DNA of 64,000 nt from a phage. Shown piece after piece: positions 31,866 to 64,000 of the stretch; the first letter of the stretch is position 1; each line of letters starts with the position of its first letter. A program made the translations under genes and the position numbers. The notes below the pieces were generated by a model that saw only the letters and a list, made by a program, of their open reading frames with translations, was not told where the DNA came from and did not search any database. The stretch is from sequence record PZ027503.1; one strand, 5' to 3'.

Positions 31866-31866
31866 A

Positions 31867-32497: not shown

Positions 32498-32557
32498 AGC
32501 GGGAAACCACTTCCCGCCCTATGTGATACATCTTATCAGGTTGTTGTTTGTTGTCAA
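32498..32557 (-). promoter_or_regulatory. promoter plus 5' stem-loop cassette
   Basis: hairpin GCGGGAAACCACTTCCCGC; TTGACA-N-TAAGAT (minus). Confidence 0.6.
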
Positions 32558-51556: not shown

Positions 51557-52023
51557 ATTTTGCAGGATATGAACCTGTAGATCTTATTAATGGTGAGGGA
51601 GTTAGGTGCTCCCTCTGGGTTAGTGGTTGTAGCCACGGTTGTCGTGGCTGTTTTAACCAAAAAGCCTGGTCTTATTCTTATGGGAAACCGTTTACTCACG
51701 AAAATGTAGAGCAAGTTTTAAAAGATTTGTCAAGACCGTTTGTAAAAGGTTTAACAATTTTAGGAGGAGAGCCATTAGATCCGCAGAATATTTACAATGT
51801 TAAAAACCTTATAGAAAAGGTGAGAGACGTTTATGGGTCAAGCAAAGATATAATGGTGTATACAGGATATACTTTTGAGGAAGTGCCTTTGTATATTAAA
51901 AATCTTGTTGACATTATTGTAGACGGAAAGTATGAAATAAACAATCCAACTACAAAACCTTTCAGAGGGTCAGATAATCAAAGATTATGGACCAAAACGG
52001 CAAGTGGTTGGCAGTCAGATTAA
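51553..52023 (+). CDS. nrdG: anaerobic RNR activating radical-SAM enzyme
   Basis: CSHGCRGC (Cx3Cx2C) motif; ATGA-coupled to nrdD. Confidence 0.85.
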   Translation: MNFAGYEPVDLINGEGVRCSLWVSGCSHGCRGCFNQKAWSYSYGKPFTHENVEQVLKDLSRPFVKGLTILGGEPLDPQNIYNVKNLIEKVRDVYGSSKDIMVYTGYTFEEVPLYIKNLVDIIVDGKYEINNPTTKPFRGSDNQRLWTKTASGWQSD

Positions 52024-52036
52024 CTTAGGAGGTTTC

Positions 52037-52228
52037 ATGGTTACATATTTTGCTGTAGGAGATAGAGTAGGGACGGCAGGAGAACTTTTGAAGAACAGTG
52101 ATCGGGACGTTAAGGACATTCTTGCAACCCTTGTGGATATTTTACAAAGAAAAGAGTTGCTTTCTGATCGAGATGTTGCTAAATTACTTGATATCGGAGG
52201 AGATGAACTTCAAAGACTTCCATTTTAA
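52037..52228 (+). CDS. hypothetical protein (63 aa)
   Basis: ORF track frame; ATG after TTAGGAGG. Confidence 0.45.
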   Translation: MVTYFAVGDRVGTAGELLKNSDRDVKDILATLVDILQRKELLSDRDVAKLLDIGGDELQRLPF

Positions 52229-52243
52229 GTGAGGAGATAAGTA

Positions 52244-52849
52244 ATGCAACATAGTGTAGTAGTCAACATGCCGAATAGTGGGGATAAATCTTTTGGTGCC
52301 CCTGCTAAAAAAGTGTGGAAAGCCCATTTTCATCTTACTTTATCTAACGTTAGTTCTGAAGAGTTGATGAAAGCAGCTAAGATTATTGGTGCCAAATGCA
52401 CAACAATTGATTTACATCGGGATACAAAGTCTCAACGTGATCGTATGTTAACAAAGTATCAAAGCGATCTCGACACTACTTTAATGTTGCAGTGTGTAGA
52501 AAAACTTGAGAAGGCAGGTTTCAATGTTGTTCGTTACAAACTGGAACGAATGTTTAAACATGTTGCCTGTGTTCTTTTCATGGATCTAAGCAAAGAAAAT
52601 TATGGAGAAGTTCACATTAAGACTTCAGCAAGTGATCCCGAAGTAGAAACAAACTTCTTCCGTATTTCTTCTAATGCTGAAGAAATTGATTACCGATTTT
52701 ATAATGCTCGCTTATATTCCGCAGAAGATAAGTTGCGTTTCAATGAAGCGTATGAGATGCTCTTGAACAGTGGGATACAGATAAAAGGCTACCACATAGA
52801 ACAAGTGGTAGTGGACAGTAATCTTAATTTAGACGCATGGTGGGCTTAA
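52244..52849 (+). CDS. hypothetical protein (201 aa)
   Basis: ORF track. Confidence 0.55.
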   Translation: MQHSVVVNMPNSGDKSFGAPAKKVWKAHFHLTLSNVSSEELMKAAKIIGAKCTTIDLHRDTKSQRDRMLTKYQSDLDTTLMLQCVEKLEKAGFNVVRYKLERMFKHVACVLFMDLSKENYGEVHIKTSASDPEVETNFFRISSNAEEIDYRFYNARLYSAEDKLRFNEAYEMLLNSGIQIKGYHIEQVVVDSNLNLDAWWA

Positions 52850-52850
52850 T

Positions 52851-53507
52851 ATGACTATTAAACATATCTCTTTTGATGTATGGAACACACTGATCACAGC
52901 AAACTCCAATTACGCAGATATGCGAGCCTGGACTATCGCAAAATATGGAGATATTACGGAAGTGGAAGCAAGAGCAGCTTATAAGAAGATCAAAAAGGAA
53001 CTGGATAATGCAGCACTTCAAGGCAAAGCTGAGTGTGCAGCATACGCCTGGGAAAGACTTGGTTCTGAACTTGGGATAACCCCTTGGAAGTCTGCAAAGC
53101 TTCGTTTCGAGTGTGAACAGTGGTTCCTTAAGTTTCCACCACACGTAGCCGTGGATCTGCCGATGTACTTGCTGTATCTTTCGGGGCGTTATGATTTGAG
53201 TATTAAGAGCAATACCAACTTCATATCAGGGGATATCCTGCGTCGTGCTTGTAAGTTTGATAGTTGGAATTGTTTTGAGTTCACCCATTTCTCGGATGAA
53301 GCTTTACTTTGTAAACCAGATCCGCGATTCTTTGCTCGCACGCTCACGTATTCTCCGATCCCTCTGTTAGGGCACGAAGTATTGCACGTAGGCGATAGTG
53401 AAGAATATGATGGAAAATGTGTTGACTTAGGATTTAACTTCTGTCATATTAAGAACCCTAACGACTTACTAGAGAAACTTAAAAGAGGAGAAATTGTAAA
53501 TGCGTAA
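52851..53507 (+). CDS. HAD-superfamily hydrolase
   Basis: motif I FDVWNTLI, motif III CKPDPRFF, motif IV HVGDSEEYD. Confidence 0.65.
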   Translation: MTIKHISFDVWNTLITANSNYADMRAWTIAKYGDITEVEARAAYKKIKKELDNAALQGKAECAAYAWERLGSELGITPWKSAKLRFECEQWFLKFPPHVAVDLPMYLLYLSGRYDLSIKSNTNFISGDILRRACKFDSWNCFEFTHFSDEALLCKPDPRFFARTLTYSPIPLLGHEVLHVGDSEEYDGKCVDLGFNFCHIKNPNDLLEKLKRGEIVNA

Positions 53508-54327
53508 TCAAACTCAAATTTTTGCAAATAAATTTGATGACCTGGAAACTGCTACTTTTGATATTAAAGATTATTCAAAATTGAAATTTGGTAGTAACCA
53601 GGCTGCGCGTCGTATGGGTAAAGAATTGGCACTTCAGTTTTTTGCTCAAGTGGCAATGGAACATATTGGGGAACAATTTGTTATCATCCCTTCTCCTTAC
53701 AACCATGTGCATAATGCTGCAACAATGATGACAGATCATTTTATTAATTACTTTAATATGTTGCAATCACAATATGATCAAGGTCGTTCAGCAGAACTGG
53801 ATATTATTCATCGTAAAGTTAGCTATATCAACGATTATGGTTTCTTGGATAAAGCTAGTCGTAAGAAACTTATTGATGGGGATACATTCTACTGCAACAA
53901 AGAATTCTGGGGTGATAAGAAGCTTGTGTTTATTGATGATGTAAATATCACTGGAACTCATGAAGACAAACTGATTGAGATCCTTGATGAAAATCAAGTT
54001 AAAAATGATGTTTACTTCTTGTATTTTGCAAAATATGAAGGTAATCAAGCAGATACCGAAGCTAAACTGAATTTTAACTACATTAAGACACCAGAAGCGT
54101 TTGTTAAAATGATTAATGAAGAACGTGATGCACAGTGCCTTGTTCGTCCTATTAAGTATCTTATGGGCCAAAATCACGAAGACTTCAAAATCATTCTTAG
54201 CCAATTGCCACACTACTATGTAGAGCAACTTTTCTTCGGATGCTTGGGAGAAGGTTACAACCGAATTTCAAAGTATGCTGAAAACTTTGAATTCTTGGAT
54301 CGTTACACAAAACAACACATTCTGTAA
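53500..54327 (+). CDS. phosphoribosyltransferase (type I PRTase fold) family protein
   Basis: PRPP-binding loop LVFIDDVNITGTH. Confidence 0.65.
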   Translation: MRNQTQIFANKFDDLETATFDIKDYSKLKFGSNQAARRMGKELALQFFAQVAMEHIGEQFVIIPSPYNHVHNAATMMTDHFINYFNMLQSQYDQGRSAELDIIHRKVSYINDYGFLDKASRKKLIDGDTFYCNKEFWGDKKLVFIDDVNITGTHEDKLIEILDENQVKNDVYFLYFAKYEGNQADTEAKLNFNYIKTPEAFVKMINEERDAQCLVRPIKYLMGQNHEDFKIILSQLPHYYVEQLFFGCLGEGYNRISKYAENFEFLDRYTKQHIL

Positions 54328-54339
54328 TAAGGAGCTAAA

Positions 54340-54813
54340 ATGCTTAAAATGAAAACAGGTAATCTTATTGATGCCGCTAAAGCAGGTGAAGTAACTGTTA
54401 TTGCTCATTGTTGCAACTGTATGTGTAATATGGGGGCAGGTATTGCCCCACAAATCAAACAAGCATTTCCTTACGCATATGCAGCAGACTTAGACACAAT
54501 GGCTGGTGATCAAAGTAAACTAGGTTGTTTTAGTTTAGGGGTGCCAGACGAACAATCAGACCCTTTGGTATATAATCTATACGGGCAATACCGTTACGGA
54601 TACAATGCTAAAGGTCGTCAGTTGGACTATGATGCACTTTACGATGCACTAATAGCTATGGCTAATGATTTGCTTCTCCGTGACCAAAAATGTAAGATCG
54701 GCTTACCTATGATTGGCGCTGGATATGCTGGAGGTAATTGGGCTATCATCCAAGTGATGATTGAAGAAACTTTAGTAAAAACAGGTCACGATGTGACTAT
54801 TTATAAACTTTAA
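54340..54813 (+). CDS. macro-domain protein (ADP-ribose binding/processing)
   Basis: VIAHCCNCMCNMGAGIA and KIGLPMIGAGYAGG motifs. Confidence 0.7.
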   Translation: MLKMKTGNLIDAAKAGEVTVIAHCCNCMCNMGAGIAPQIKQAFPYAYAADLDTMAGDQSKLGCFSLGVPDEQSDPLVYNLYGQYRYGYNAKGRQLDYDALYDALIAMANDLLLRDQKCKIGLPMIGAGYAGGNWAIIQVMIEETLVKTGHDVTIYKL

Positions 54814-54825
54814 GAGGAGATTAGT

Positions 54826-55047
54826 ATGGGTGTTTTTGCAGGTATTGTTGCAGTGGTAAGCTTTTTTGTTATTGCTTTTATGCTTAGTTTGATTCCAGCT
54901 TGGTTACTGTTGCTGGCTTACAACTATGTTGCTGAAGTTATGGGTCATGCAGATATCACTGTCCCAGTAACCTTCTGGACCGTGGTTTGTGTTTCGTTTA
55001 TTCTGGCTGTATTACGAGGAATCTTTTCCTCTCATTCAACAAAATAA
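54826..55047 (+). CDS. small membrane protein (73 aa)
   Basis: ORF track; two TM helices. Confidence 0.5.
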   Translation: MGVFAGIVAVVSFFVIAFMLSLIPAWLLLLAYNYVAEVMGHADITVPVTFWTVVCVSFILAVLRGIFSSHSTK

Positions 55048-55050
55048 GTG

Positions 55051-55109
55051 TTGACATAGTTCTTAAAAAGAGTAAGATATATCACATGAAGCGGGGAATA
55101 GTTCCCCGC
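55051..55109 (+). promoter_or_regulatory. promoter plus 5' stem-loop cassette (same family as island cassettes, plus orientation)
   Basis: TTGACA-N16-TAAGAT, then hairpin GCGGGGAATAGTTCCCCGC, then GAGAGGAG RBS. Confidence 0.6.
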
Positions 55110-55126
55110 AAAGAGAGGAGAAAAGA

Positions 55127-56101
55127 ATGCAACTTGGTTTCCCAATTATTGATGTAGTTGTTTTAGTTGGTATTTTAGCATTGTCTATTGGTATCGATTT
55201 CTTTGGTCATAAAGAGAATAAAGAAATTGGAATTAAATCTGCTTTGCTTTGGTCTGTTTTTTGGATTGCTTTAGCTTTAGGATATTACGCATTCATTTGG
55301 GTAGAACATGGTAAAGAGTTTGCCGCGCTTTTCCTAAGTGGCTATGTGTTGGAAAAGAGTCTTTCTGTAGATAACCTGATGGTGTTCATGGCGATTTTTG
55401 CAAGCTTTGGAATTAAGAGCACACATCTCCAACATAAGATTCTACTTTGGGGGATTGCAGGAGCCATTGTCTTCCGAGGTATTTTTGTTGCAGCAGGGAC
55501 CGCTTTGTTTAACCTTCATTGGTCGGTCCAAGTGTTGTTCGGTTTGATTGTAGCTTGGTCTGCCGTGGCTATCATCAAAGGTGGTGACGAAGAAGAGGAT
55601 ATTGATTACTCTAAACATTGGGCTGTTCGTTTAGTAGGTAAAGTTCTGCCTGTGCACAATGCACTAGATGGTGAAAAGTTCATTACCATTAAGAATGGTA
55701 TTAAATATGCAACTCCTGCTCTTCTTTGTGTGTTTGTTATTGAGCTTACAGATATTGTCTTCTCTTTTGATTCAGTTCCGGCTGTGATCGGTGTGACACA
55801 AGAACCTCTGCTAGTTTATTCTGCAATGCTGATGGCTGTTCTTGGTTTACGTGCACTTTTCTTTGTGTTAAGTGTAGCTGTGAAATATCTGGTTCACTTA
55901 GAGAAAGCTGTTGCTGTGGTTCTGGTGTTTGTCGGTGCTAAACTTATGTATCACCCGTTCGGTGAAACACTTCATGCCAAGTGGTCATTCCTCCCGCATG
56001 ATATTTCCCCTAACGTAAGTCTGATGATTGTTCTAGGCACATTAGCTCTTGGTGTTATTGCAAGCTTTATCTTCCCTGAAAAAGAAGAAGCTGCTATTTA
56101 A
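55127..56101 (+). CDS. TerC-family integral membrane protein
   Basis: multi-TM; duplicated signature VLEKSLSVDNLMVF and IELTDIVFSFDSVPAV. Confidence 0.8.
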   Translation: MQLGFPIIDVVVLVGILALSIGIDFFGHKENKEIGIKSALLWSVFWIALALGYYAFIWVEHGKEFAALFLSGYVLEKSLSVDNLMVFMAIFASFGIKSTHLQHKILLWGIAGAIVFRGIFVAAGTALFNLHWSVQVLFGLIVAWSAVAIIKGGDEEEDIDYSKHWAVRLVGKVLPVHNALDGEKFITIKNGIKYATPALLCVFVIELTDIVFSFDSVPAVIGVTQEPLLVYSAMLMAVLGLRALFFVLSVAVKYLVHLEKAVAVVLVFVGAKLMYHPFGETLHAKWSFLPHDISPNVSLMIVLGTLALGVIASFIFPEKEEAAI

Positions 56102-56107
56102 TAGATG

Positions 56108-56130
56108 AGCCTCCTTCGGGAGGCTATTTT
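56108..56130 (+). terminator. rho-independent terminator
   Basis: AGCCTCCTTCGGGAGGCT hairpin then ATTTTAT. Confidence 0.6.
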
Positions 56131-56143
56131 ATAGGAGAGACTT

Positions 56144-56494
56144 ATGAATAATTTTGATGAAATTCAAGAACTTGTTTGGGATTTGCCTGGTGATGTGGAT
56201 TACATTTCAGATTATCTTTCAAAAGTTTACCCTGGGGTAAGCGTTATGATTGTGACCAAAGATCCGATTAATTTGCCTCCTAATGTGGTAGCTTGTTGTG
56301 GAAGTGGTTCAGGAGAAGTAGAGCCTGTATCTCGTTGGGAATTAACTAAAGCTGTTTCAAAACGAAACGGTGAAGTTTTGAATATTGATATTGAACAAAT
56401 ATGGACTTCTCCAGCAGCCAAATGGAATGATCCGAATGGTTGGGATTTGTTCTTCTGGGATAATGAAACTGATGATGAGGTATTTTTAAAATGA
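56144..56494 (+). CDS. hypothetical protein (116 aa)
   Basis: ORF track. Confidence 0.55.
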   Translation: MNNFDEIQELVWDLPGDVDYISDYLSKVYPGVSVMIVTKDPINLPPNVVACCGSGSGEVEPVSRWELTKAVSKRNGEVLNIDIEQIWTSPAAKWNDPNGWDLFFWDNETDDEVFLK

Positions 56495-56736
56495 AATACT
56501 TGTTGGTTGTGTTTGAAAATATCTGTTTTGCAATAGGGTTGTTTGTTGTAATTTTTGTATTGACAAGCGTAATCAACGGCAGTAAAGTGAGTTTATACCG
56601 AGATGGAGAGCAACTTTATTGCTTCTCTGGAGATTTCAAACACAGATGTATTAATAGCCAAAACGAGGAAAGCAAATATGAAAAAACTAGCCCTGATTTT
56701 AATTGGTTGTATCTTTTTAACAGCTTGCGAGGATGA
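56491..56736 (+). CDS. small membrane protein (81 aa)
   Basis: ORF track; overlaps start of next gene, end uncertain. Confidence 0.4.
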   Translation: MKYLLVVFENICFAIGLFVVIFVLTSVINGSKVSLYRDGEQLYCFSGDFKHRCINSQNEESKYEKTSPDFNWLYLFNSLRG

Positions 56737-57115
56737 AACAAATCCTGCACAATACCAACAACCTCCTCAACAATACGCTCAACAAAGATCTGACGGAGAT
56801 ACAACTATTATCAACAATGGTGGCGGTTCTAGTAGTAGCGGTGTTGGTGAGTTTGCTACAGGTATGTTGTTAGGGCATATGATGAGTGGCGGTAGTAATC
56901 GTAGCAGTGGGGATTATAACGATAACAGAACGATTATTAATAAGCATTATAATACACCTAAACCGAAAACTAATTTTTATGGTAAGCCTAAACAAGAGAT
57001 AAAAACTTATGAAAAGCCGAGACAAACTTTTAAAACAAATAGTAGCTATACAACTCGTAAATCTTACAATAGCCCTTTAAGTAAAAAGAGTTCATCTCGT
57101 AGCAAGCGACGTTAA
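56678..57115 (+). CDS. lipoprotein (145 aa), Q/P/G/S-rich
   Basis: ORF track frame; start MKKLALILIGCIFLTAC (lipobox) after GAGGAAAG RBS. Confidence 0.55.
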   Translation: MKKLALILIGCIFLTACEDETNPAQYQQPPQQYAQQRSDGDTTIINNGGGSSSSGVGEFATGMLLGHMMSGGSNRSSGDYNDNRTIINKHYNTPKPKTNFYGKPKQEIKTYEKPRQTFKTNSSYTTRKSYNSPLSKKSSSRSKRR

Positions 57116-57129
57116 TAAGGAGAAAAACA

Positions 57130-57723
57130 ATGACAATTTCTATCCGTACTTCCATTACAGGTGTTAAAAGTTTGCCTAATGCTTTGCAAATTACACGCGC
57201 TTTGAGGGATACGTTCTCTGCTGTGGATGAGCATAAGATGCTCGATAATCTCTCAAATTGGCCCTATTTTCATTATTTTAAAAATGAAGACGACGAGTTT
57301 ATAGATGCTGTTTCTTATGGTTATGATTTCGGTAAGGAGGTTTCTCCTGAAGAATTTGTAGCTACGGTATTTCCAAATGGTTTTCCTACTCGCAATAAGC
57401 GTAAAAAAGGACCAAAAAACAAGAAACGTGCTACTAATAAAGCTACCATTTTCTTTACTGATGGGACACAGTATACGATTAAAGATTTTGAAGAAGTATC
57501 TTATACAGCAGGTGGGAATCTTTCTTTCTACACCATCAAAAAACAAAACTATACGTTCAGCCATGTTTCTAACATGATTGAAATGTTAGTAGAAGATATT
57601 GAAAGCGTGGCTGTGTTAGGTATGCATAAAAGCTTTTTAATTACAAATATTTCAGATTTCAGTGCAAGTTTATCTGGCCCTGATTTTGAAGCCACGACCA
57701 CGCATTTCGCTTTTAAGGTGTAA
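57130..57723 (+). CDS. hypothetical protein (197 aa)
   Basis: ORF track. Confidence 0.55.
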   Translation: MTISIRTSITGVKSLPNALQITRALRDTFSAVDEHKMLDNLSNWPYFHYFKNEDDEFIDAVSYGYDFGKEVSPEEFVATVFPNGFPTRNKRKKGPKNKKRATNKATIFFTDGTQYTIKDFEEVSYTAGGNLSFYTIKKQNYTFSHVSNMIEMLVEDIESVAVLGMHKSFLITNISDFSASLSGPDFEATTTHFAFKV

Positions 57724-57725
57724 GT

Positions 57726-58316
57726 ATGCATACCGAGAGAGACTTGCAACTCTTGTGGTGGGAAGTGATGCAGGAAATAAAAGAAGATTTTCCTGTTTAC
57801 TACAACATGTTACGTGAAGCAGGATATAAAGCTTGTGTTAGAAACAAAGTGAATAACTCTTTCGGTTGGTGCAACTACCGAGATAAAATTGTTGTTGTAA
57901 ATTGGCACTTGCATAAGAACTCTACAAGAGATATGATCGTGGATACAATGAAGCACGAAATTGCTCACGCTATTGATGGTTGTATGGGTAAGTTTAGTAG
58001 GCACGGTGCTCATTGGCAAAAACTGGCAGCAGAGTTAGGGGCTAATCCTAAAGCCACTTCCAAAGAGCCGTTGAACCACGAGTATAAATATGTTCTTGTT
58101 CTGGTAGATAGGTTTGCGACAAGATGTGTTAGAGGTTATAATCGTAAACCTAATCGCATGTACCCAGGCAAGCAACCTAACATGTGGTTGAAATCAGATA
58201 AAGAAGGAACTGAAGGAAAATTATGGTTGTATAAATGGGATGATTGGGTTAAAGTAGCTAAAGAGTACGGTGTTTCACCATATATAAGAGATGCAGAAGA
58301 GGAGAATGAAGAATGA
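57726..58316 (+). CDS. SprT-like zinc metalloprotease domain protein
   Basis: HEIAHAIDG ... HGAHW motifs. Confidence 0.6.
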   Translation: MHTERDLQLLWWEVMQEIKEDFPVYYNMLREAGYKACVRNKVNNSFGWCNYRDKIVVVNWHLHKNSTRDMIVDTMKHEIAHAIDGCMGKFSRHGAHWQKLAAELGANPKATSKEPLNHEYKYVLVLVDRFATRCVRGYNRKPNRMYPGKQPNMWLKSDKEGTEGKLWLYKWDDWVKVAKEYGVSPYIRDAEEENEE

Positions 58317-59425
58317 CAAGTCCATTTTTAAAAGTAGCTACTGGTGGTCAGAAGAAGTCTGAAATGAGTGTATTCGCTGCAACAACAGATGCAAGTAAAT
58401 CTGTATTCGCTCCAAGCGTGTTAGATGCCAGTCCTGTTTATGCACCAGCGGCACCGCAAGAAGTTCCAGTTTTGCCTTCTATGACCCGACAAGAGATTGA
58501 AGAGATTGGGGCAGAGGCAGGAACAACCTTGCGTTCCTTGAATGCCGAGGTGTTAAAACATCAACGTAGTAATCAAGGCGATCAGATGAGTGAACGACTT
58601 ACAGCTTTGATTAAACAGGCAAAACAACTTGATCCAAACTCTATTAAACAAAGCAAGGGTATTACTAAACTCATTAAAAAAGTTATGGGTATGAAAGAAG
58701 ACCTGTTCGGGGAGTTTGATAATGTTAATAACCGTATTGAAGAGTTGGTAAAGAACCTTCAAATGGATATTCGCAAAGAAGAAGATTCCTTGGTATATCT
58801 TGAAAAGCTACATCAAGCTATTGGACAATATGCTGCAAGTTTGAACCGAGATATGCAGCTTCTAACAGCAACCTATGAAAAAGAAGAACAAGCTTTGGCT
58901 GCTCTTCCAGAAGATGCAGTAGAACAGCGACAAGTGATCCGAGATACTTTGGATCTTCTGGAGATTCGTATTGCAGATTTAAAAGCATTGCGCCTACTGT
59001 GTGTCCAAATGGGACCGCGTGTACAAGGTATGCAAAAAGTTTCTGCAAGCTTAATGCGATCTGCGCGTAACATAGTAAATAATGTTATTCCTGCTTACTC
59101 TGCTAACTTCTCAATGTATATCGAGAGCTTACGTCAAATGAAAGCAGCAGAGACGCAGAATAACGTTCTTGATGAATTTAACCTGGCAATTAAACTGGGT
59201 AGCGATCTTGCCACACAGAATCAGATCGAAGCAGCAGCACTGGCTAACCGTCAAGTGTTGGATATTGAAACTCTGCGTCACGATCAGGAAAACTTGGTTA
59301 AGATGCTGGAAGAAACTAACCGCATCAATACGGAAGCCCGTGCTGCTCGTGTTGATTATATTAATGAAGTTCAATCTCTGGAAGACGGGATGGTAGCTGC
59401 TGTGAAACGAGGGCTTGGTAAATGA
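58313..59425 (+). CDS. alpha-helical/coiled-coil protein (370 aa), possibly TelA-like
   Basis: ORF track; TelA suggestion from size and Ter context only. Confidence 0.5.
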   Translation: MTSPFLKVATGGQKKSEMSVFAATTDASKSVFAPSVLDASPVYAPAAPQEVPVLPSMTRQEIEEIGAEAGTTLRSLNAEVLKHQRSNQGDQMSERLTALIKQAKQLDPNSIKQSKGITKLIKKVMGMKEDLFGEFDNVNNRIEELVKNLQMDIRKEEDSLVYLEKLHQAIGQYAASLNRDMQLLTATYEKEEQALAALPEDAVEQRQVIRDTLDLLEIRIADLKALRLLCVQMGPRVQGMQKVSASLMRSARNIVNNVIPAYSANFSMYIESLRQMKAAETQNNVLDEFNLAIKLGSDLATQNQIEAAALANRQVLDIETLRHDQENLVKMLEETNRINTEARAARVDYINEVQSLEDGMVAAVKRGLGK

Positions 59426-59619
59426 GAATCCGTATCTATATAATTGATGAAGACATTGGTGTCCGTTATGATGACGAAAAACGATTCGCACCGATGGGAG
59501 GCATATATCCCCCAAGTGTTCTAGCAGTTTGTCGTGATTGTTATATTTATGAAGGTTGTCGTAACTTCCGTAAATTCGAACTCCTTGCAGATATTGACTT
59601 CAATGAGGAGGAGGAGTAA
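59422..59619 (+). CDS. hypothetical protein (65 aa)
   Basis: ORF track. Confidence 0.5.
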   Translation: MRIRIYIIDEDIGVRYDDEKRFAPMGGIYPPSVLAVCRDCYIYEGCRNFRKFELLADIDFNEEEE

Positions 59620-59791
59620 TGAAAATATTACGGGTGAATATTGAAACTGCTTGGTGTGGATGCAATGAGGTTGTGGATATCGAAATTGAAGATGATATGT
59701 CTCAAGAGGATATAGAAGATCTTGCACACGAAACCTTTCAGGATTATTGTAATTACGGGTTCCATATTTTAGAGGAGGAAGAAGATGTATA
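59619..59791 (+). CDS. small acidic protein (57 aa)
   Basis: hand-translated MKILRVNIETAWCGCNEVVDIEIEDDMSQEDIEDLAHETFQDYCNYGFHILEEEEDV. Confidence 0.4.
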
Positions 59792-60183
59792 ATCCAACAG
59801 GTATTCTTTTAAAACTTACAGTAACAGACCCTACTCTTTTCACTAATTTGGCAAGTGGTGAAGTTTATGAAGTAATGAAAGATGATGACGGTTGGTGTTA
59901 TCTTTGTGGCTACTTCCTCTGTGATGCAGAAGAGTTAGAATCCATTATAACTAAAGGTTTTTATGAAGAACCAGGGTTCCGTGTGGAAACTACGCAGAAA
60001 CCTGATACCATTACGTTGACTCGACAGGAACTGATCACAATCATTGAAGATGCTTTTATAGATGGCTGGAATACACAAGATAATGACTGGGGTGGACCCG
60101 AAGCTTTTCTGGAACATCATAAAGCTTATGGAGAATTTTGTGAAACCACTGTAGCTCTTGATAATCTGAAGGAGGGTTTGTAA
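59785..60183 (+). CDS. hypothetical protein (132 aa)
   Basis: ORF track. Confidence 0.55.
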   Translation: MYNPTGILLKLTVTDPTLFTNLASGEVYEVMKDDDGWCYLCGYFLCDAEELESIITKGFYEEPGFRVETTQKPDTITLTRQELITIIEDAFIDGWNTQDNDWGGPEAFLEHHKAYGEFCETTVALDNLKEGL

Positions 60184-60746
60184 TGGGTTGTTTTAGCTTT
60201 TTGTGCAAAGAATCGGGCAAAGCTGCCCTTTCTACTTCTTTCGACGGATCACCTTGCTACCTCTTTCTTTTGAAGGACGGTGTTGTTATTGAAGAGATGT
60301 ATGGCAACTATGATAGTTATGGTTGTGTTTTCTCTGGAAAGGAGGATGAAAATGGTGTTCGTGAACGATTTGAATGGGCTATGGATTGGAGTAAGGTTTG
60401 TGATTTGATGCATTCCTCAAATCCAAGGGACGGTATCGCTATGGTGCTGGAAGAGTACTTTACAGGTGAAATCCCTACAGAACAATCTGACGGAGATCCT
60501 AACCAAGGTTGGGGTGATGGTGAAGAAGATCCAGATTGTTTTTTCAGCACAGAAAAGAATAAGTTTAAACGTGTTGACAACCCTTATCACAAAGTGCATA
60601 ATACTCTCATTGAAACAGAAGATGACAAGATGGAAATTGAAGAAGATGATCCTCTTGTAACACTTCCTATAAGTGAGTTACAAAAGATCACTAAGGAAGC
60701 TTACGATTTGGGCTTCAAAATTGGTAGAGGAGGTATGCGTGTTTAG
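60183..60746 (+). CDS. hypothetical protein (187 aa)
   Basis: ORF track. Confidence 0.55.
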   Translation: MGCFSFLCKESGKAALSTSFDGSPCYLFLLKDGVVIEEMYGNYDSYGCVFSGKEDENGVRERFEWAMDWSKVCDLMHSSNPRDGIAMVLEEYFTGEIPTEQSDGDPNQGWGDGEEDPDCFFSTEKNKFKRVDNPYHKVHNTLIETEDDKMEIEEDDPLVTLPISELQKITKEAYDLGFKIGRGGMRV

Positions 60747-61017
60747 ATTCAATATTCAAGAAGAAAAAAGTCAGGATTTACCTATTGCTTTCGAAGATCT
60801 TGACGTAGGGGCCACATTCATGTATTATGATGCCTATGAAGACGCAGGGTTGGATACCTACCGTAACTTGGTGTTCATTAAAAATTCCACAAACAGTGCG
60901 ATTTGTATTAATGGATCACTAGCACAACGAGGCTATACTCATTGCATCCCACCAGATACAAATATGGTGGAAGTAGATTTAGAAGTTACCAATATTACAC
61001 TTAAGAAGGAGAAATAA
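60739..61017 (+). CDS. paralog family D member (92 aa, GTG start)
   Basis: ORF track frame; start set by alignment to 62039 paralog and GGAGG RBS. Confidence 0.45.
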   Translation: MFRFNIQEEKSQDLPIAFEDLDVGATFMYYDAYEDAGLDTYRNLVFIKNSTNSAICINGSLAQRGYTHCIPPDTNMVEVDLEVTNITLKKEK

Positions 61018-61018
61018 T

Positions 61019-61813
61019 ATGTCCGAGAAAATCAGCCTGAAAAAACGTCAAGAAAACCTTGCTTTCTCTCTGAAAAAGAATAAGAACCTGAATGAAGGTA
61101 AGATTGTTCTTCGTGTAGCATGTGCTCTAGATATTTCTGGTAGTATGCATGGTCTATATTCTAGTGGGGTAGTGAGTGATTTTGTAGGTAAACTGCTTCC
61201 TTTTGGTATGCTGTTCGACGATAATCAACAAATTGATATGTGGGCCTTCAATACGAGTTCCCAAGAGCTTACTCCAGCAACAGCAGACGTTTACGATGAC
61301 TATGTTGGTAAATGTATGCGCAATGTTCGTATCGGAGGTGGAACAAATTACGCCCCTGTAATGGCAGATATCTACGATGAGTATTTTGGCACTGTTACCA
61401 AATATATTACCACTAAACAAGTGGTACAAGAGGAGGCTCCAAAGAAAGGCTTCTTTAATCGTCTGCTTGGTAAAACTGAAACAGTGTCTGTAGAGCGTGA
61501 AAAAGTTGTAGCTGTATCTGAACCAGGTGCTGACGTTACCCCTGGTGTTGTATTCTTCCAGACGGATGGTGAGAATGGTGATCCTAGTGCTGTTCGTCGT
61601 CTTATTGAAGAGAATAAGAATAAACCTATTTATTGGTTCATGGTTGGCGTTGGTAATGAGAAGTTTGGCTTCCTGAAAGAACTGGCAAATGCTTATGATA
61701 ATGTTGGTTTTATTGGCATTAAAGATTTAGACTTGACAGATTCAGAGCTTTATGACAAACTTTTATCTGAAGAGTTCGGAGAGTGGGTTGTTAAAGTAGG
61801 TGCTAAAAAATGA
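61019..61813 (+). CDS. vWA-domain protein with KISLKK N-terminus
   Basis: MIDAS-like DISGSM motif. Confidence 0.65.
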   Translation: MSEKISLKKRQENLAFSLKKNKNLNEGKIVLRVACALDISGSMHGLYSSGVVSDFVGKLLPFGMLFDDNQQIDMWAFNTSSQELTPATADVYDDYVGKCMRNVRIGGGTNYAPVMADIYDEYFGTVTKYITTKQVVQEEAPKKGFFNRLLGKTETVSVEREKVVAVSEPGADVTPGVVFFQTDGENGDPSAVRRLIEENKNKPIYWFMVGVGNEKFGFLKELANAYDNVGFIGIKDLDLTDSELYDKLLSEEFGEWVVKVGAKK

Positions 61814-62058
61814 TCGACAAGCTTGCCTCTCAAGTCGTAGAAAATTATTGGCGCGAGAGAGAAGCTTTCATTATGCGCAGTCTCAAAGAGTATTTCATTG
61901 GGACTGTGCGAATGGAAGATATTGTAAGTAGAGTAGAGATTCATGTATGGCCCGATTATGAAGAATGGGTTGACAAAGAAAATGAAAATGCTATAATTCT
62001 TCGTATATACAAACCGGAGATAACATTAGGAGGAAGAAGTGTTAAACTTCGAAATTGA
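61810..62058 (+). CDS. hypothetical protein (82 aa)
   Basis: ORF track. Confidence 0.5.
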   Translation: MIDKLASQVVENYWREREAFIMRSLKEYFIGTVRMEDIVSRVEIHVWPDYEEWVDKENENAIILRIYKPEITLGGRSVKLRN

Positions 62059-62308
62059 TGAGCAAAAAGTAAATAAACGATGCCTTACCATTAAAGATTT
62101 GGATGTAGGAGATACTTTCGTCTATGAAAATGCATTTGATGAAAATGGTTTAGACCTTAGTGAAATCATTGTTTATTTAAAAGTAGACGATGGGGAGAAT
62201 GATTATTCCGCTGTAGAACTAAACCATCATGCACAATTAGTATCAATCCAAAACACATCTAAGCTTTTGGAAGTAGAATTGACTGTAACTGGTATTACAC
62301 TTAAATAA
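62039..62308 (+). CDS. paralog family D member (89 aa, GTG start)
   Basis: ORF track; LDVGDTF(V/M)Y motif shared with 60739. Confidence 0.5.
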   Translation: MLNFEIDEQKVNKRCLTIKDLDVGDTFVYENAFDENGLDLSEIIVYLKVDDGENDYSAVELNHHAQLVSIQNTSKLLEVELTVTGITLK

Positions 62309-62323
62309 TAGAGGAGACAAAAG

Positions 62324-62926
62324 ATGACTGATAAAATTTCCCTGAAAAAAGGCTCTAGCGAAAAAATTTCCCTGAAGAAAGTTGCTCCGGCTCTGAAAGA
62401 ACTGCGCCTGGAATTCTCTTGGAAATCTGATTCTAAACTGGATCTGGATGTAAGTGCACTGGTTTGTCGTCATAATGCCGCTGGCAATCCTGAAATGCTG
62501 TCTGCACGTCATCTGGTTTGCTACGCTAACAAGTTTGATCCTGAACGTTCTACCTTCGCTGGTGACGATGTTCGTGATGGGACTGGCAGCATGGAGCAGA
62601 TTGATATTACTCTGGCTAAAATTTCTCCTGATGCACAAGAGATTGCCTTTGTTCTGACCATTGATGATGATACAGGTCTGAAACGTTTTGGTCATGCTTC
62701 TGAAGGTATGCTTAAAATCTTTGACTCCGAACGCAATGTGGAAATTCTGGATTTTGACTTCCTGGCTCCTGAAGTAGCTGGTAACACAATCTGCCACGTG
62801 GCTTCCTTGGTTCGTGAAGATGGGGAATGGAAGCTGAAAGCATATGGTGTAGGTAAAGCTGGTCTGGATATTTGCGATGTGGTGATGGCCTTCGGTGGTA
62901 AAAAAGAATGGTATGAATGTCCATAA
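62324..62926 (+). CDS. TerD-family protein
   Basis: 200 aa; duplicated KISLKK N-terminus, LDLDVSALV, EIAFVLTID, C-terminal GEWKLKAYGVG. Confidence 0.7.
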   Translation: MTDKISLKKGSSEKISLKKVAPALKELRLEFSWKSDSKLDLDVSALVCRHNAAGNPEMLSARHLVCYANKFDPERSTFAGDDVRDGTGSMEQIDITLAKISPDAQEIAFVLTIDDDTGLKRFGHASEGMLKIFDSERNVEILDFDFLAPEVAGNTICHVASLVREDGEWKLKAYGVGKAGLDICDVVMAFGGKKEWYECP

Positions 62927-62944
62927 TAATTAACAAATGATTTT

Positions 62945-62964
62945 GAGGGGGAGAAATCCCCCTC
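62945..62964 (+). terminator. probable terminator hairpin
   Basis: GAGGGGGAGAAATCCCCCTC; weak T-run. Confidence 0.4.
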
Positions 62965-62993
62965 TTGCAATAAAGCCTCTATCGTGTTATACT
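62965..62993 (+). promoter_or_regulatory. sigma70-like promoter
   Basis: TTGCAA-N17-TATACT upstream of AAAGGAGG RBS. Confidence 0.45.
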
Positions 62994-63025
62994 AGAAATT
63001 CGTTAACTTAAAAAGGAGGCAAAAT

Positions 63026-63547
63026 TTGCTGATAAAAAACTTTGTAACAGTTGCGTTACTATCCTTAACTGCTTTTACATTTACACCTGTTGTGGCGAAA
63101 GCCGAAGCTGCAAACGTAAAAACCGCTAAAGTAGTTCACAAATGTACAAAGCAATATAATGATAAAATTCTATTAGCTTGTGCAATTTACGCAGAAGGTC
63201 GAGGTCTGGGTAAAAAAGGAATGAATGCCGTTGGGAATGTGGTAATCAACAGAAGAAATGATACCTACTTCCCTAACACAGTCAGAGGAGTCTTGTTCCA
63301 GAAAGGGCAATTCTCATATGCGAAAACTTTTAACGTAACAGAGAAAGATAAGTGGCAAGAAGCAAAAGCAATAGCGGAGCGTTTACTTTATTTAGAGAAA
63401 CATTTTCCTGAATTGCGGTCTGTTTTAGATGTTACTAAAGGTGCTCTATACTTCAAGAAACGGAATATAAGGACACACTGGGAACGTGATATGCGTCTTG
63501 TTTATCGAGATAAAGTGCATGGTTTCTATCTACCAAAGGGGAGTTAA
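63026..63547 (+). CDS. secreted SleB-like cell-wall hydrolase (TTG start)
   Basis: signal peptide; AIYAEGRG ... AVGNVVINR ... VRGVLFQKGQFS motifs. Confidence 0.65.
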   Translation: MLIKNFVTVALLSLTAFTFTPVVAKAEAANVKTAKVVHKCTKQYNDKILLACAIYAEGRGLGKKGMNAVGNVVINRRNDTYFPNTVRGVLFQKGQFSYAKTFNVTEKDKWQEAKAIAERLLYLEKHFPELRSVLDVTKGALYFKKRNIRTHWERDMRLVYRDKVHGFYLPKGS

Positions 63548-63548
63548 A

Positions 63549-63833
63549 ATGCAAGAAGATAATACTGTTGTTGTAGCAAGTTACCTGGTTGTCGGTCTTA
63601 CTGAAGAGGATGTATACTACACCCGTAAGCATTTAGAAGCATATGCTACTTTGTTTATGGAAGATGAAAAGGATGTAGATAAATATAGCATTGACATGAT
63701 CAACGACAGTATTTATCCTTGTATGGTTCTTAAAGTAGATGCTGTATTGTGGGAGCGTTTTGCAAGGACTCATGATGCTGTAGAATGCTCCGCAGTAATG
63801 TCTCAAAACAATATTTTAGGGGAGATTCACTGA
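63549..63833 (+). CDS. hypothetical protein (94 aa)
   Basis: ORF track frame; ATG after AAGGGGAG. Confidence 0.55.
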   Translation: MQEDNTVVVASYLVVGLTEEDVYYTRKHLEAYATLFMEDEKDVDKYSIDMINDSIYPCMVLKVDAVLWERFARTHDAVECSAVMSQNNILGEIH

Positions 63834-64000
63834 TGGGAGAAGTCATTGAAGTCAATTTTCGCACTAAACAGAAAGTGCAAAAATATGTCGTTATTAAAAA
63901 CATTTGCGTTGTCTGCTTCAATACAGTAATATACGACTCACGACGCGGAGAAAACGAAAATGAACCTTACATTGAAATTTCTAAGAACAAAGGTCAATGT
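63833..64000 (+). CDS. hypothetical protein, 3' end beyond window
   Basis: open frame from ATG 63833 to window edge. Confidence 0.4.
   Translation, partial: MGEVIEVNFRTKQKVQKYVVIKNICVVCFNTVIYDSRRGENENEPYIEISKNKGQC

Follow-up and report, generated by a model that had tools for sequence, protein, structure and literature searches.

The ter genes of R478 inhibit phages and protect against pore-forming colicins, effects that depend on terC, terD, and terZ (Whelan 1995, as cited in PMC12054061). In Klebsiella pneumoniae, deletion of terC led to larger plaques and to reduced growth under phage attack (PMC12054061). Clusters of TerC, TerD, TerF, and TelA have been described in phages, with a proposed role in superinfection exclusion (Iyer et al. 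2021 and other papers), and Ter genes of a coral-symbiont phage are expressed early in infection (bioRxiv 10.1101/2025.10.29.685362). The ideas that the original prediction offered for the locus studied here (envelope or metal remodelling, superinfection exclusion, and anti-defence) are those already put forward in the literature on phage Ter clusters (PMC7824862). The cluster itself is also known, as the GenBank records of phi92 and SKA64 annotate these genes. What is new here is the core gene order across at least five diverged lineages, with SprT, HAD–PRTase_3, and macro as variable add-ons; the HAD–PRTase_3 pair as a separable two-gene cassette; a monocistronic terC that shares its promoter and leader hairpin with a distant small-gene cluster; and a small SH3-like protein that accompanies vWA and TerD and is duplicated in this phage.

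The window that we analysed (64,000 nucleotides of record PZ027503.1) is 99.5% identical to Escherichia phage ETEC-TG and belongs to Phapecoctavirus (phAPEC8 type, lytic on E. coli). This is a genus of strictly lytic myoviruses, so the genome was rightly described as virulent-phage-like. Searches with Pfam and NCBIfam profiles uphold every Ter-family assignment, and these genes do lie within 8 kb on one strand (Table 1). TerC contains both of the motifs by which it was recognized (SLSVDN and DSVPA), scores above the cut-off of the NCBIfam TerC/Alx model TIGR03718 (319 vs. 246 bits), and shares 48-50% identity with TerC proteins of plasmids, one of them encoded within a terZABCDEF operon. The TerD protein matches the solved structure of Klebsiella TerD (2KXT, 1.5e-15) as well as 3IBZ (~1e-15), and its nearest members of the classical operon are TerE and TerD. 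The 370-aa helical protein that was thought to be a possible TelA is now firmly placed in that family, and the SprT-like metalloprotease has the expected HEIAH motif.

Table 1. Features of the Ter region and its flanks (positions in the window).
Feature	Position	Strand	Evidence or remarks
g201	52244..52849	+	Directly 5' of HAD gene; PADLOC "AbiEi" models 5e-13
Atypical HAD-fold protein	52851..53507	+	Pfam Hydrolase 21 bits, below cut-off 26
PRTase_3 (ComF-like phosphoribosyltransferase)	53500..54327	+	PF15610, E=1e-41
Macro-domain protein (DarG-like or Poa1p-like)	54340..54813	+	Pfam Macro 22.4 bits vs. cut-off 22
Small hydrophobic protein, 73 aa	54826..55047	+	PHROG 16065; kept in phi92, L013
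terC sigma-70-type promoter	55051..55078	+	TTGACA-16-TAAGAT
terC leader motif and GC hairpin	55080..55109	+	Motif 55080-55094; stem 55091-55098 with 55102-55109
TerC/Alx-subfamily integral membrane protein	55127..56101	+	PF03741, E=3e-40
Intrinsic-terminator-like hairpin 3' of terC	56108..56125	+	AGCCTCC-TTCG-GGAGGCT then ATTTTAT
g116	56144..56494	+	PHROG 27498; homolog in L013
g81, small protein with N-terminal hydrophobic segment	56491..56736	+	Homologs in phi92, L013
Predicted lipoprotein	56678..57115	+	Signal sequence, lipobox LTAC; PHROGs 21570, 32479
g197	57130..57723	+	Variable N-terminus, basic linker KRxKGxK...K, conserved beta-rich C-terminal half
SprT-like zinc metalloprotease	57726..58316	+	PF10263, E=4e-9, 36.7 bits vs. 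cut-off 25.6
TelA-family helical protein	58313..59425	+	PF05816, E=3e-33, residues 59-361
g65, g132, g187 (small/medium ORFs, TelA to vWA unit)	59422..60746	+	PHROGs 14200, 14928
Sigma-70-like promoter 5' of SH3-like copy 1 and vWA	60574..60602	+	TTGACA-17-CATAAT, 11/12
Small SH3-like protein, copy 1	60739..61017	+	PHROG 11278; directly 5' of vWA gene
Standalone TerF-type vWA protein	61019..61813	+	PF10138 (vWA-TerF-like), E=2e-37; ~50 aa insert
g82	61810..62058	+	No homolog among compared loci
Extended -10 sigma-70 promoter 5' of SH3-like copy 2 and terD	61970..61997	+	TTGACA-16-TG-TATAAT, 12/12
Small SH3-like protein, copy 2	62039..62308	+	PHROG 11278; directly 5' of terD
TerD-domain protein	62324..62926	+	PF02342, E=3e-28
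SleB-like cell-wall hydrolase, Sec-type signal peptide	63026..63547	+	PF07486, E=2e-17

The alignment of the vWA protein with the C-terminal half of TerF (9e-21) covers the DxSGS, GGTN, and TDG motifs, and the MIDAS residues of the protein (DxSGS...T...D) are intact. The KISLKK N-terminus that it was said to have in common with TerD is real, but the shared segment is short (pairwise E = 0.013). In the vWA protein, it aligns with the interdomain segment of a classical TerF (residues 182-205), and we rejected the idea that it is a remnant of a TerD N-terminus.

The Ter-type set had been called complete, and it is not. Profile searches of the window found a single TerD-domain protein and no TerB, no TerD+vWA fusion, and no ATP-grasp, C-C lyase, StiP/PELOTA, PRTase_2, or TerY-kinase-phosphatase. 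All of these, along with extra TerD proteins, are present in the classical ter locus that we analysed, except for TerY-kinase-phosphatase, which we did not find there. The acidic Ca2+ loop of TerD has diverged, with several acidic residues lost (GDDVRDGTGSMEQ vs. GDNRTGEGDGDDE), and no PADLOC model matches any of the four Ter core proteins (TerC, TelA, vWA, and TerD). It is highly improbable that the module is a classical auxiliary gene that confers tellurite or xenobiotic resistance on the host during infection. The family names point that way, and phage genome papers have suggested it (PMC11256456; bioRxiv 10.1101/2025.10.29.685362), but tellurite is scarce in the gut and in sewage, a strictly lytic phage carries the module, TerB and the other TerD paralogs of the classical determinant are missing, and tellurite resistance has been judged unlikely for such partial sets (PMC9796965).

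The four core genes are nevertheless a conserved unit. The order TerC or DUF475 ... TelA ... vWA, TerD is kept in at least five diverged Stephanstirmvirinae-like lineages, namely phi92, Klebsiella phage 05F01, and three metagenomic relatives (TelA only 47-48% identical). The genes are thus syntenic, not scattered, in related phages, and their clustering is not due to chance. Tight TelA-vWA-TerC-TerD clusters are also found in the unrelated genera Otagovirus and Bertelyvirus. In 05F01 and the compared loci L012 and L013, the TerC slot is occupied by the related family DUF475, which argues that a membrane partner from the TerC clan is required. Relative to phi92, dN/dS is at most 0.25 for every gene tested, and the amino acid identities of TelA and TerD (79-81%, with TelA at 79%) exceed that of NrdG (69%). 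The module is inherited vertically and is under purifying selection. A word-indexed search for TelA homologs returned only 33 clusters, with identities of at least 44%; two of them are named, both as phages, and no bacterial name occurs among them.

Several small proteins travel with this core. The predicted lipoprotein, which also has a Gly/Ser-rich segment and a basic tail (we took its start as in the SKA64 annotation), is kept in phi92, 05F01, L012, and L013. A relative of g197 adjoins or is near TelA in all of the diverged relatives compared; this family has 9 protein clusters, none with a bacterial name and the sole named one from a phage, and its AlphaFold model has a pLDDT of 37. The SH3-like family comprises 23 clusters, again with no bacterial names and with two named as phages. 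Both g132 and g187 are kept in phi92. SprT and macro, in contrast to these conserved partners, are variable neighbours. The SprT-like gene, which ends in a 4-nt overlap with the start of TelA, is found in 05F01 and L013/L014 but is absent from phi92 and L012 (and was not detected in L015, whose contig is truncated). L012 has a Band_7/HflK-like membrane scaffold in its variable slot.

The genes upstream of terC were expected to extend the likeness to bacterial Ter neighbourhoods. No sequence similarity could be detected, however, between the HAD and PRTase_3 proteins and their counterparts (HAD and PRTase_2) in the biosynthetic arm of the classical ter plasmid locus. Of the three adjacent genes that were named, only PRTase_3 has a strong match, with an invariant PRPP loop (FIDDVxITGTHE); HAD is below the Pfam cut-off and macro is at it. 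NCBIfam HAD-IA models match the HAD protein only below threshold. In five diverged phages its motif I reads S[FL]DVWNT, which places Trp at the Asp+2 position; motifs II-IV are retained. The HAD stop overlaps the PRTase_3 start by 8 nt, and the HAD gene always precedes PRTase_3 in XaC1, Rhizobium TM30, Brevundimonas Papperlapapp, and a Fibrobacterota MAG contig. In other phages, this pair is found at a distance from Ter genes or in stretches that lack them. The macro-domain protein matches DarG in PADLOC (4e-10) and, well below the cut-off, in NCBIfam (35 vs. 250 bits); it has homologs in phi92, L013, and phiPsa300 (there beside NadV). The 73-aa hydrophobic protein probably has two transmembrane segments. 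No Pfam or NCBIfam model matches g201, but a HMMER search gave 79 representative homologs with invariant motifs HxHxT, RxKxE, ExHxK, and FxNxR. As judged from these relatives, some of which are fused to NUDIX, HD_4, or Ham1, the domain probably acts on nucleotides. Among the compared loci it occurs only in Phapecoctavirus (it is absent from phi92, 05F01, and L012-L015).

We propose that g201, HAD, PRTase_3, and macro form a separable cassette for a nucleotide or ADP-ribose derivative; a link with the Ter proteins is possible, though our explanation does not need one. If there were such a link, HAD-PRTase_3 with g201 and macro would make or trim a nucleoside-like or ADP-ribose-like molecule, and TerD, vWA, or TelA would detect it and switch a membrane response. 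The Ter system of Acinetobacter phage ME3 was reported with PRTase and HAD "signal biosynthesis" genes (PMC7824862), all four cassette genes lie directly 5' of terC in Phapecoctavirus (and three do in phi92), and the strong PRTase_3 match with its intact PRPP loop and the fusions of g201-like domains to nucleotide hydrolases are consistent with this chemistry. We consider it distinctly unlikely, as 05F01, L012, and L013 keep the Ter core without the HAD-PRTase_3 pair, and the pair is 36 kb away from the Ter genes in Papperlapapp and among nucleotide and RNA-repair genes in TM30 and Xanthomonas phage XaC1. Also, the HAD lacks the Asp+2 general acid, and the classical biosynthetic arm is dissimilar.

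The terC gene has its own regulatory elements. The -35 element of its promoter (GTTGAC) is kept in phi92 and 05F01, and the ASO2A record annotates a promoter at this site. The leader hairpin, directly 5' of the ribosome-binding site, has a folding energy of -14.6 kcal/mol, and compensatory changes are seen in its phi92 and 05F01 counterparts. No T-run follows the stem, so the hairpin does not qualify as an intrinsic terminator. The ASO2A record does annotate a terminator after terC, at the same place as our terminator-like hairpin. Judging from these elements, terC is a monocistronic unit with its own promoter, leader hairpin, and terminator. The leader motif TATCACATAGGGCGG has 17 copies in the window (0.79 expected), and the terC copy is the only one on the + strand. 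The other 16 copies of the promoter and leader cassette are all within a small-gene cluster at 22.9-32.5 kb, which we take to be early genes of the phage. As for the other two promoters, both hexamers of the one ahead of vWA are identical in phi92, although its 11/12 match is not significant alone, and the gap ahead of terD in phi92 contains a TTGACT-17-TAAAAT promoter.

The early-looking promoters would also suit a role in counter-defence, in which the module stabilises the inner membrane against depolarising or perforating abortive-infection effectors of the host, so that the phage cycle completes. The membrane theme of the module (TerC, TelA, small transmembrane proteins, a lipoprotein, and Band_7 in one relative) fits this. 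The likeness of the adjacent macro domain to the antitoxin domain of DarG raises the possibility that anti-defence genes accumulate in this region. The idea is drawn by analogy and no protein matches a known anti-defence family, so we think it unlikely.

We are more inclined, though still doubtful, to consider cation homeostasis or metalation with no role in exclusion. TerC/Alx would export Mn2+ (possibly Zn2+ or Ca2+) and TerD and vWA would buffer or sense divalent cations, so that metal pools fit phage enzymes or exported phage proteins are loaded with metal. The phage TerC belongs with the TerC/Alx "metal homeostasis" subfamily by its score, and the intact MIDAS site agrees with this, but the terC leader has no Mn riboswitch, the acidic loop of TerD is degenerate, and no metal role is known for TelA. 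The conserved neighbours include a lipoprotein and a Sec-exported hydrolase, which fits metalation; a SleB-type hydrolase is not known to require a metal, however, which counts against it. TerC proteins load exoenzymes with metal at the Sec translocon and are exporters of Mn (PMC10550928, PMC12096827), and K. pneumoniae terC contributes to Mn and Zn resistance (PMC12054061).

The hydrolase gene is immediately 3' of terD in every Stephanstirmvirinae-like relative examined, and its product has a cleavable-looking signal peptide, so Ter proteins might guard lysis timing by keeping the membrane energised and the exported hydrolase inactive until programmed lysis. This is very unlikely: common descent explains the adjacency, the Ter clusters of Otagovirus and Bertelyvirus lack the hydrolase, the ASO2A record has a terminator annotated between terD and the hydrolase gene, and the main endolysin may be another protein. 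The hydrolase is not counted here among the Ter components.

The best explanation is that this region is a phage version of the Ter "hub", with TerC, TelA, a TerF-type vWA protein, and one TerD. We lean tentatively towards an early envelope-conditioning or exclusion complex as its most likely function. Against exclusion, the missing TerB and extra TerD paralogs belong to the bacterial phage-inhibition determinant, the Ca2+ loop of TerD has lost several acidic residues, no PADLOC model matches the core proteins, and exclusion may be of little benefit to a lytic phage with a short latent period. In the envelope-conditioning complex, a TerC/Alx inner-membrane cation transporter, a helical TelA, a vWA protein with a metal-binding MIDAS, and a TerD beta-sandwich would be joined by lineage-specific small partners (the SH3-like protein, the lipoprotein, small membrane proteins, and g197). 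From the promoter sequences, we infer that host RNA polymerase would transcribe the Ter genes soon after infection. Their products would then assemble at the cytoplasmic membrane and change its ionic and physical state. The most likely benefit to the phage is that the infected cell would become refractory to DNA injection by competing phages and to colicin-type pore formers; the second likely benefit is that the membrane would retain its integrity until programmed lysis.

Profile searches confirmed TerC, TerD, vWA, SprT-like and TelA proteins where the original prediction had placed them, with all five genes on one strand (see the table). The SprT-like protein scores well above the Pfam cut-off but far under the cut-off of the NCBIfam SprT equivalog (21 vs. 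175). The upstream genes had been called PRTase, HAD and macro: the first is strongly supported, as PRTase_3 (E = 1e-41), the HAD match is weak, and the macro match is borderline. Stop and start codons overlap in HAD/PRTase_3, SprT/TelA, TelA/g65 and vWA/g82 (g65 and g82 are ORFs of the window). When compared by sequence with the PDB, TelA and the vWA protein had no matches, and none of the four core Ter proteins (TerC, TelA, vWA and TerD) matched a PADLOC defence model. For g197, an ORF just upstream of the SprT-like gene, the AlphaFold model had too low a confidence to use (pLDDT 37).

Features of the Ter region and of comparison loci (L-numbers; L012 and L013 are metagenomic relatives)
Feature	Sequence	Coordinates	Strand	Details
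TATCACATAGGGCGG leader motif, 16 copies	window	22925-32528	-	in a cluster of small ORFs
Two ORFs (184 aa and 448 aa)	window	47744-49641	+	between UvrD helicase and NrdD
g201	window	52244-52849	+	201 aa, no Pfam family
HAD	window	52851-53507	+	
HAD homolog	L002	3455-4111		
HAD homolog	L008	5333-6001		
HAD homolog	L009	4540-5232		
HAD homolog	L010	5342-6004		
Macro protein	window	54340-54813	+	157 aa, macro domain only
Macro homolog, Pseudomonas phage phiPsa300	L004	4879-5388		E = 1e-29
terC promoter	window	55051-55078	+	TTGACA-16-TAAGAT
TATCACATAGGGCGG leader motif, 17th copy	window	55080-55094	+	before terC
terC leader hairpin	window	55091-55109	+	compensatory changes in phi92 and 05F01
TerC	window	55127-56101	+	PF03741, E = 3e-40; TIGR03718 (TerC/Alx subfamily), 319 bits vs. 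cut-off 246
Terminator-like hairpin after terC	window	56108-56125	+	
DUF475	L003	4531-5595		
DUF475	L012	2666-3730		
DUF475	L013	5893-6957		
Band_7/HflK-HflC-like membrane scaffold	L012 (SRR10097270)	4332-5213		between the TerC/DUF475 gene and TelA
g197	window	57130-57723	+	
SprT-like	window	57726-58316	+	PF10263, E = 4e-9, 36.7 bits vs. cut-off 25.6; HEIAH in translation
TelA	window	58313-59425	+	PF05816, E = 3e-33, 115.7 bits vs. cut-off 30
Promoter site, 11/12	window	60574		before first SH3-like gene and vWA; hexamers unchanged in phi92
SH3-like protein, first copy	window	60739-61017		before vWA
TerF-type vWA	window	61019-61813	+	PF10138, E = 2e-37; 264 aa
Sigma-70 promoter, perfect 12/12, extended -10	window	61970-61997		before second SH3-like gene and terD
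SH3-like protein, second copy	window	62039-62308		before terD
TerD	window	62324-62926	+	PF02342, E = 3e-28; solved structures 2KXT (Klebsiella TerD), 1.5e-15, and 3IBZ, 3e-14
SleB-like hydrolase	window	63026-63547	+	"endolysin" in relatives

Escherichia phage ETEC-TG is 99.5% identical to the window across the whole of 52000-64000, and 65 phage records hold at least 80% of that segment. Of the 134 matching records, 63 are at least 95% identical; those with names are phAPEC8-type phages (genus Phapecoctavirus, subfamily Stephanstirmvirinae), and among the matches listed, thirty Phapecoctavirus-type genomes are all at least 96.6% identical. Another 67 records, including phi92-type Justusliebigvirus and Klebsiella phages, are at 60-80% identity. 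These phages are lytic myoviruses of ~150 kb. In the window, the Ter region lies within a long plus-strand arm (UvrD helicase, NrdD/NrdG, Ter region, SleB-like hydrolase, glycosyltransferases, primase-helicase). Four records that are labelled as Campylobacter phages (MG065650, MG065689, MG065656 and MG065645; B15, A110a, C3 and A145) match E. coli Phapecoctavirus or Justusliebigvirus at the level of genuine members. B15 is 98.3% identical over the 12-kb segment (52000-64000), and TelA from A110a is 78.5% identical, as is phi92's. These four records are probably mislabelled or from contaminated preparations.

Two further observations concern the rest of the window. No tRNA genes or Rfam families reached threshold anywhere in 1-64000, and Phapecoctavirus members are reported to have about 13 tRNAs, so the tRNA genes must sit outside the window. 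The two ORFs between the UvrD helicase and NrdD are labelled "seryl-tRNA synthetase" and "class III ribonucleotide reductase" in one record; neither has a Pfam or NCBIfam match, and the labels find no support in our searches.

The Ter locus is already in the public record. The SKA64 record labels the same genes TerC, SprT-like, TelA, vWA-TerF-like, TerD, HAD, PRTase and macro. The phi92 record has a "tellurite resistance" protein, a "membrane bound tellurium resistance protein" and a "stress protein", and a Phapecoctavirus genome paper merely lists "tellurite resistance"; plain tellurite resistance is one of the rival explanations for the module. Iyer et al. 2021 (PMC7824862) described phage Ter operons, included PRTase and HAD among them as "signal biosynthesis" genes, and proposed a role in competition with superinfecting phages, so the hypothesis is in print as well. 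The same four families (TerC, TerD, TerF-vWA and TelA) were reported in Klebsiella phage phiKp34 (PMC8386662) and Pseudomonas phage PhiPsa374 (PMC9796965), and one or more Ter-family genes were reported in P. syringae phages and in Endozoicomonas phages. A literature search found no published functional test of any phage Ter cluster. The original prediction was right in what it observed and in part of how it interpreted it, and the finding was already public.

In the published operons (PMC7824862, PMC8386662, PMC9796965), as here, the four families are clustered on one strand of a lytic phage, some with PRTase and HAD, and the proposed function is likewise the exclusion of competing phages. 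The Stephanstirmvirinae cluster differs from these: it is spread over ~8 kb and interleaved with lineage-specific genes for SH3-like proteins, a lipoprotein, g197, and SprT or Band_7, and its terC has an early-type cassette of its own.

We searched the proteins of the window against the ORFs of related loci. The phi92 locus (Justusliebigvirus; gp172-gp187) and the phAPEC8-type loci in GenBank are orthologous gene for gene. The order in phi92 is HAD, PRTase_3, macro, small membrane protein, TerC, small protein, lipoprotein, g197-like, TelA, g132, g187, SH3-like, vWA, TerD and SleB (g132 and g187 are ORFs of the window); the differences are not substantial, in that relative to phi92, Phapecoctavirus has in addition g201, g116, SprT, g82 and the second SH3-like copy. 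In Klebsiella phage 05F01 and three metagenomic relatives, TelA is 41-48% identical to the window's, and the order is TerC or DUF475, a variable stretch, g197-like, TelA, a gap, vWA, SH3-like (in most), TerD and SleB-like hydrolase. DUF475, which belongs to the same clan as TerC/Alx, fills the TerC slot in 05F01, L012 and L013: here a related family has displaced TerC/Alx, while the rest of the module is conserved. In the variable stretch, some lineages encode a SprT-like protease, and L012 encodes a Band_7/HflK-like protein. Among the related loci, HAD-PRTase_3 is found only in Phapecoctavirus and phi92-type phages, and macro is found in these and in L013. In Otagovirus and Bertelyvirus, TelA, vWA, TerC and TerD form tight clusters. 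The jumbo phages Asteriusvirus and Alcyoneusvirus have TelA, and the window's TerC, TerD and vWA have no match there within 10 kb of it. The comparison bears out a cluster of four Ter genes that is syntenic in related phages, and it defines the conserved core as a TerC-clan protein together with TelA, vWA and TerD; SprT, macro and HAD-PRTase_3 are add-ons.

The core is under purifying constraint by the measures we have: relative to phi92, dN/dS was at most 0.25 for every gene tested (these are rough values, as dS is saturated), and TelA and TerD are 79% and 81% identical to their phi92 counterparts, more than NrdG (69%). The versions of TelA and TerD in other phages are strongly diverged (about 22-29% identity). 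A word-indexed homolog search with TelA gave just 33 clusters, each with at least 44% identity; none was bacterial by name, and the two named ones were both phages. As judged from these comparisons, the phage TelA forms an isolated clade, and the SH3-like family and g197 show the same restriction to these phages. A recent acquisition of terC from E. coli was considered and rejected, as there were zero nucleotide matches in 5,426 E. coli genomes.

One rival explanation is a signal-coupled system that uses the HAD-PRTase_3 cassette. PRTase_3 (PF15610, ComF-like) is a secure assignment (143.6 bits vs. a cut-off of 28.7), with an invariant PRPP loop (DDVxITGTHE). The HAD protein is under its Pfam cut-off. 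Its motif I is DVWNT, rather than DxDx[TV], in five diverged phages, so it lacks the Asp+2 general acid, and the HAD that is paired with PRTase_3 may differ from ordinary phosphatases. At every locus that we inspected, HAD and PRTase_3 sit side by side, in most cases with an overlap, including the loci of Xanthomonas phage XaC1, Rhizobium phage TM30, Brevundimonas phage Papperlapapp and a Fibrobacterota MAG contig. In Papperlapapp, the pair lies about 36 kb from the Ter genes; in XaC1 and TM30, its neighbors are genes for RNA repair and nucleotide metabolism, and a weak TerD-like match in XaC1 lies about 165 kb from the pair. Scanning a genome collection with the PRTase_3 alignment returned phage-like contigs only. 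We conclude that HAD-PRTase_3 is a separable cassette, at best optionally coupled to the Ter proteins.

Two other neighbors may also act on nucleotides. The macro protein resembles the macro domain of the antitoxin DarG, a DNA ADP-ribosyl glycohydrolase, in that it matches PADLOC's DarG model (4e-10), but it does not reach the DarG equivalog (NCBIfam, 35 bits vs. a cut-off of 250, N-terminus only) and is without the C-terminal DarT-binding domain. Its homolog in phiPsa300 is beside a nicotinamide phosphoribosyltransferase and a Prs-like gene, a setting that is suggestive of ADP-ribose or NAD metabolism more than of Ter function. The g201 protein (relatives are about 170-200 aa) has the family-wide invariant motifs HxHxT, RxKxE, ExHxK, SxN and FxNxR, and other proteins carry its domain in fusions with the nucleotide hydrolases NUDIX, HD_4 and Ham1; nucleotide processing is its probable role. 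It is also matched at 5e-13 by PADLOC "AbiEi" models, for which we have no explanation. The idea that g201 is a canonical 2H phosphoesterase was unsupported: the second motif is HxK, not Hx[ST], and it has no PDB or Pfam match.

The original prediction also held that the phage carries a complete Ter-type set that reproduces much of the bacterial gene neighborhood. Both statements go too far. As a classical locus, we used an Enterobacter roggenkampii plasmid (NZ_CP096189), with terW, DUF4236, C-C lyase, StiP/PELOTA, HAD, PRTase_2/TRSP and ATPgrasp_Ter in its first arm, and terZ, A, B, C, D, E, an unnamed gene and terF in its second. Plasmid TerC proteins are 48-50% identical to the phage's (48% for this plasmid). 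However, TerB, which the plasmid locus has, gave no Pfam match in the plus-strand ORFs from 45.4 to 63.8 kb. The phage has a single TerD-domain ORF, as against five in the plasmid locus (counting TerF), and so is without the paralogs TerZ, TerA and TerE. The biosynthetic arm is absent too, as PRTase_2/TRSP, StiP-PELOTA, ATPgrasp_Ter, the C-C lyase and the canonical HAD (motif I DLDDT) have no family member in the window, and the phage's own HAD and PRTase_3 have no phmmer match at E ≤ 1 among the plasmid locus's proteins.

Among the proteins that are shared with classical terZABCDEF (IncHI2-type and other enterobacterial plasmids, R478 type), TerE and TerD are the nearest relatives of the phage TerD. 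The loop of the phage TerD retains DLD and GD(D), but relative to the Ca2+-loop reference (GDN.TG.GDGDDE), the acidic run of Klebsiella TerD, GDGDDE, is GTGSMEQ here and GTGDFE in relatives, so Ca2+ binding by the phage TerD is uncertain. In classical TerF, a TerD domain is fused to a vWA domain, whereas the phage vWA protein stands alone and is related to the C-terminal half of TerF, with alignment confined to TerF residues 182-408 and with the MIDAS residues (DxSGS, GGTN and TDG) shared. Its N-terminus, K[IV]SLxKRxExLxxSLKK, is kept in all relatives and has a weak likeness to the N-terminus of TerD (pairwise E = 0.013). We rejected the idea that it is the remnant of a deleted TerD domain: this KISLKK segment matches TerF residues 182-205, which lie between the two domains of TerF, so it belongs to the vWA module. 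Conversely, TelA is present in the phage module and not in the classical operon. TelA-family proteins (above the Pfam cut-off) are in common with kilA-telA-telB (klaABC) of RK2 and with TelA/YaaN-type proteins, but the RK2-type partners KlaA and TelB were not detected in the phage.

TerC itself falls in the Alx subfamily, with E. coli Alx and B. subtilis MeeF/MeeY, which are manganese exporters and metalation factors. A rival explanation draws on that role, namely that the module serves cation homeostasis or metalation. A yybP-ykoY Mn2+ riboswitch upstream of terC was considered and rejected, as no Rfam family reached its gathering score in the whole window. The leader also has no T-run after its hairpin, and its motif comes from a promoter-leader family with 17 copies. 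From the -10 element to the start codon, there are only about 48 nt, with one hairpin. Instead of the riboswitch, the phage terC has a promoter and hairpin cassette.

The motif in this cassette, TATCACATAGGGCGG, occurs 17 times in the window vs. 0.79 expected, with 16 minus-strand copies between 22.9 and 32.5 kb. In a promoter scan, 14 of these 16 were preceded by a TTGACA-type promoter, and every copy forms a hairpin ahead of a ribosome-binding site. The layout is a TTGACA-N17-TAAGAT-type promoter, TATCACATAGGGCGG, a GC hairpin and the ribosome-binding site. Such cassettes resemble the "promoter-early stem-loop" cassettes of T4-type phages. On sequence grounds, we read them as early-gene cassettes, which would make terC an early gene. 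The signals flanking terC coincide with a promoter and terminators annotated in the ASO2A record, and terC is predicted from these signals to be a transcription unit of its own. The three promoters, those before terC, the first SH3-like gene and the second, predict transcription starts at about 55085, 60609 and 62004. Farther downstream, phi92 has a promoter before its terD as well (TTGACT-17-TAAAAT). As a class, promoter-like sites are not enriched in the region (55 found vs. 47 ± 7 expected), and we give weight only to the perfect 12/12 site and the TATCACATAGGGCGG cassette.

Our data establish a membrane-themed Ter core that is conserved, under selection and equipped with host-type promoters. 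Among the explanations, we tentatively favor one in which its products would form an early membrane-associated complex. This complex would protect infected cells from DNA entry by a second phage and from pore-forming colicins, and it would stabilize the membrane until lysis. This is a real possibility, though we would not bet on it. It draws on the phenotypes of bacterial ter genes (Whelan 1995, as cited in PMC12054061), on terC deletion data (PMC12054061), and on the published proposal for phages (PMC7824862). Another rival, counter-defence against membrane-killing abortive systems, would also place the module's action at the membrane. A further rival is a lysis-timing guard tied to a Sec-exported hydrolase. 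The SleB-like protein downstream of terD starts with a cleavable-looking Sec signal peptide (MLIKNFVTVALLSLTAFTFTPVVAKA followed by EA, with the apparent cleavage site between them), which suggests that it is exported before lysis.

A possible parallel to the proposed membrane complex is found in T4, whose Imm and Sp are early-expressed, membrane-located proteins that guard the infected cell against later-arriving phages. The likeness would be of mechanism only: there is no sequence or fold relationship, and the Ter module is a multi-protein set that was borrowed from a bacterial stress system. A bolder reading, which we consider unlikely, is that this is a distinct, phage-evolved system for guarding the envelope and not merely a borrowed partial Ter operon. 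A TerC-clan transporter expressed from an early promoter-hairpin cassette, the TelA/vWA/TerD core, and phage-only partners (the SH3-like adaptor, the lipoprotein, g197 with its basic linker, and the SprT-like protease or Band_7 scaffold) would then form a new machine for superinfection exclusion or against abortive infection.

Ter proteins have resisted a functional and mechanistic explanation for about 30 years, despite their links to resistance to tellurite, colicins and phages. A compact, conserved Ter set in a lytic coliphage is a convenient genetic entry point. E. coli K-12 is the recorded host of many such phages, among them PaulScherrer and other BASEL collection members, which should make deletions and exclusion assays easy. 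To the published proposal, our computational analysis adds details that mainly help in designing such an experiment: it defines the core set, separates the HAD-PRTase_3 cassette from it, identifies the early-type cassette of terC, and contrasts the module with a classical ter locus. If the phage does have its own system for guarding the envelope, then it could become a tractable model for showing what Ter proteins do.
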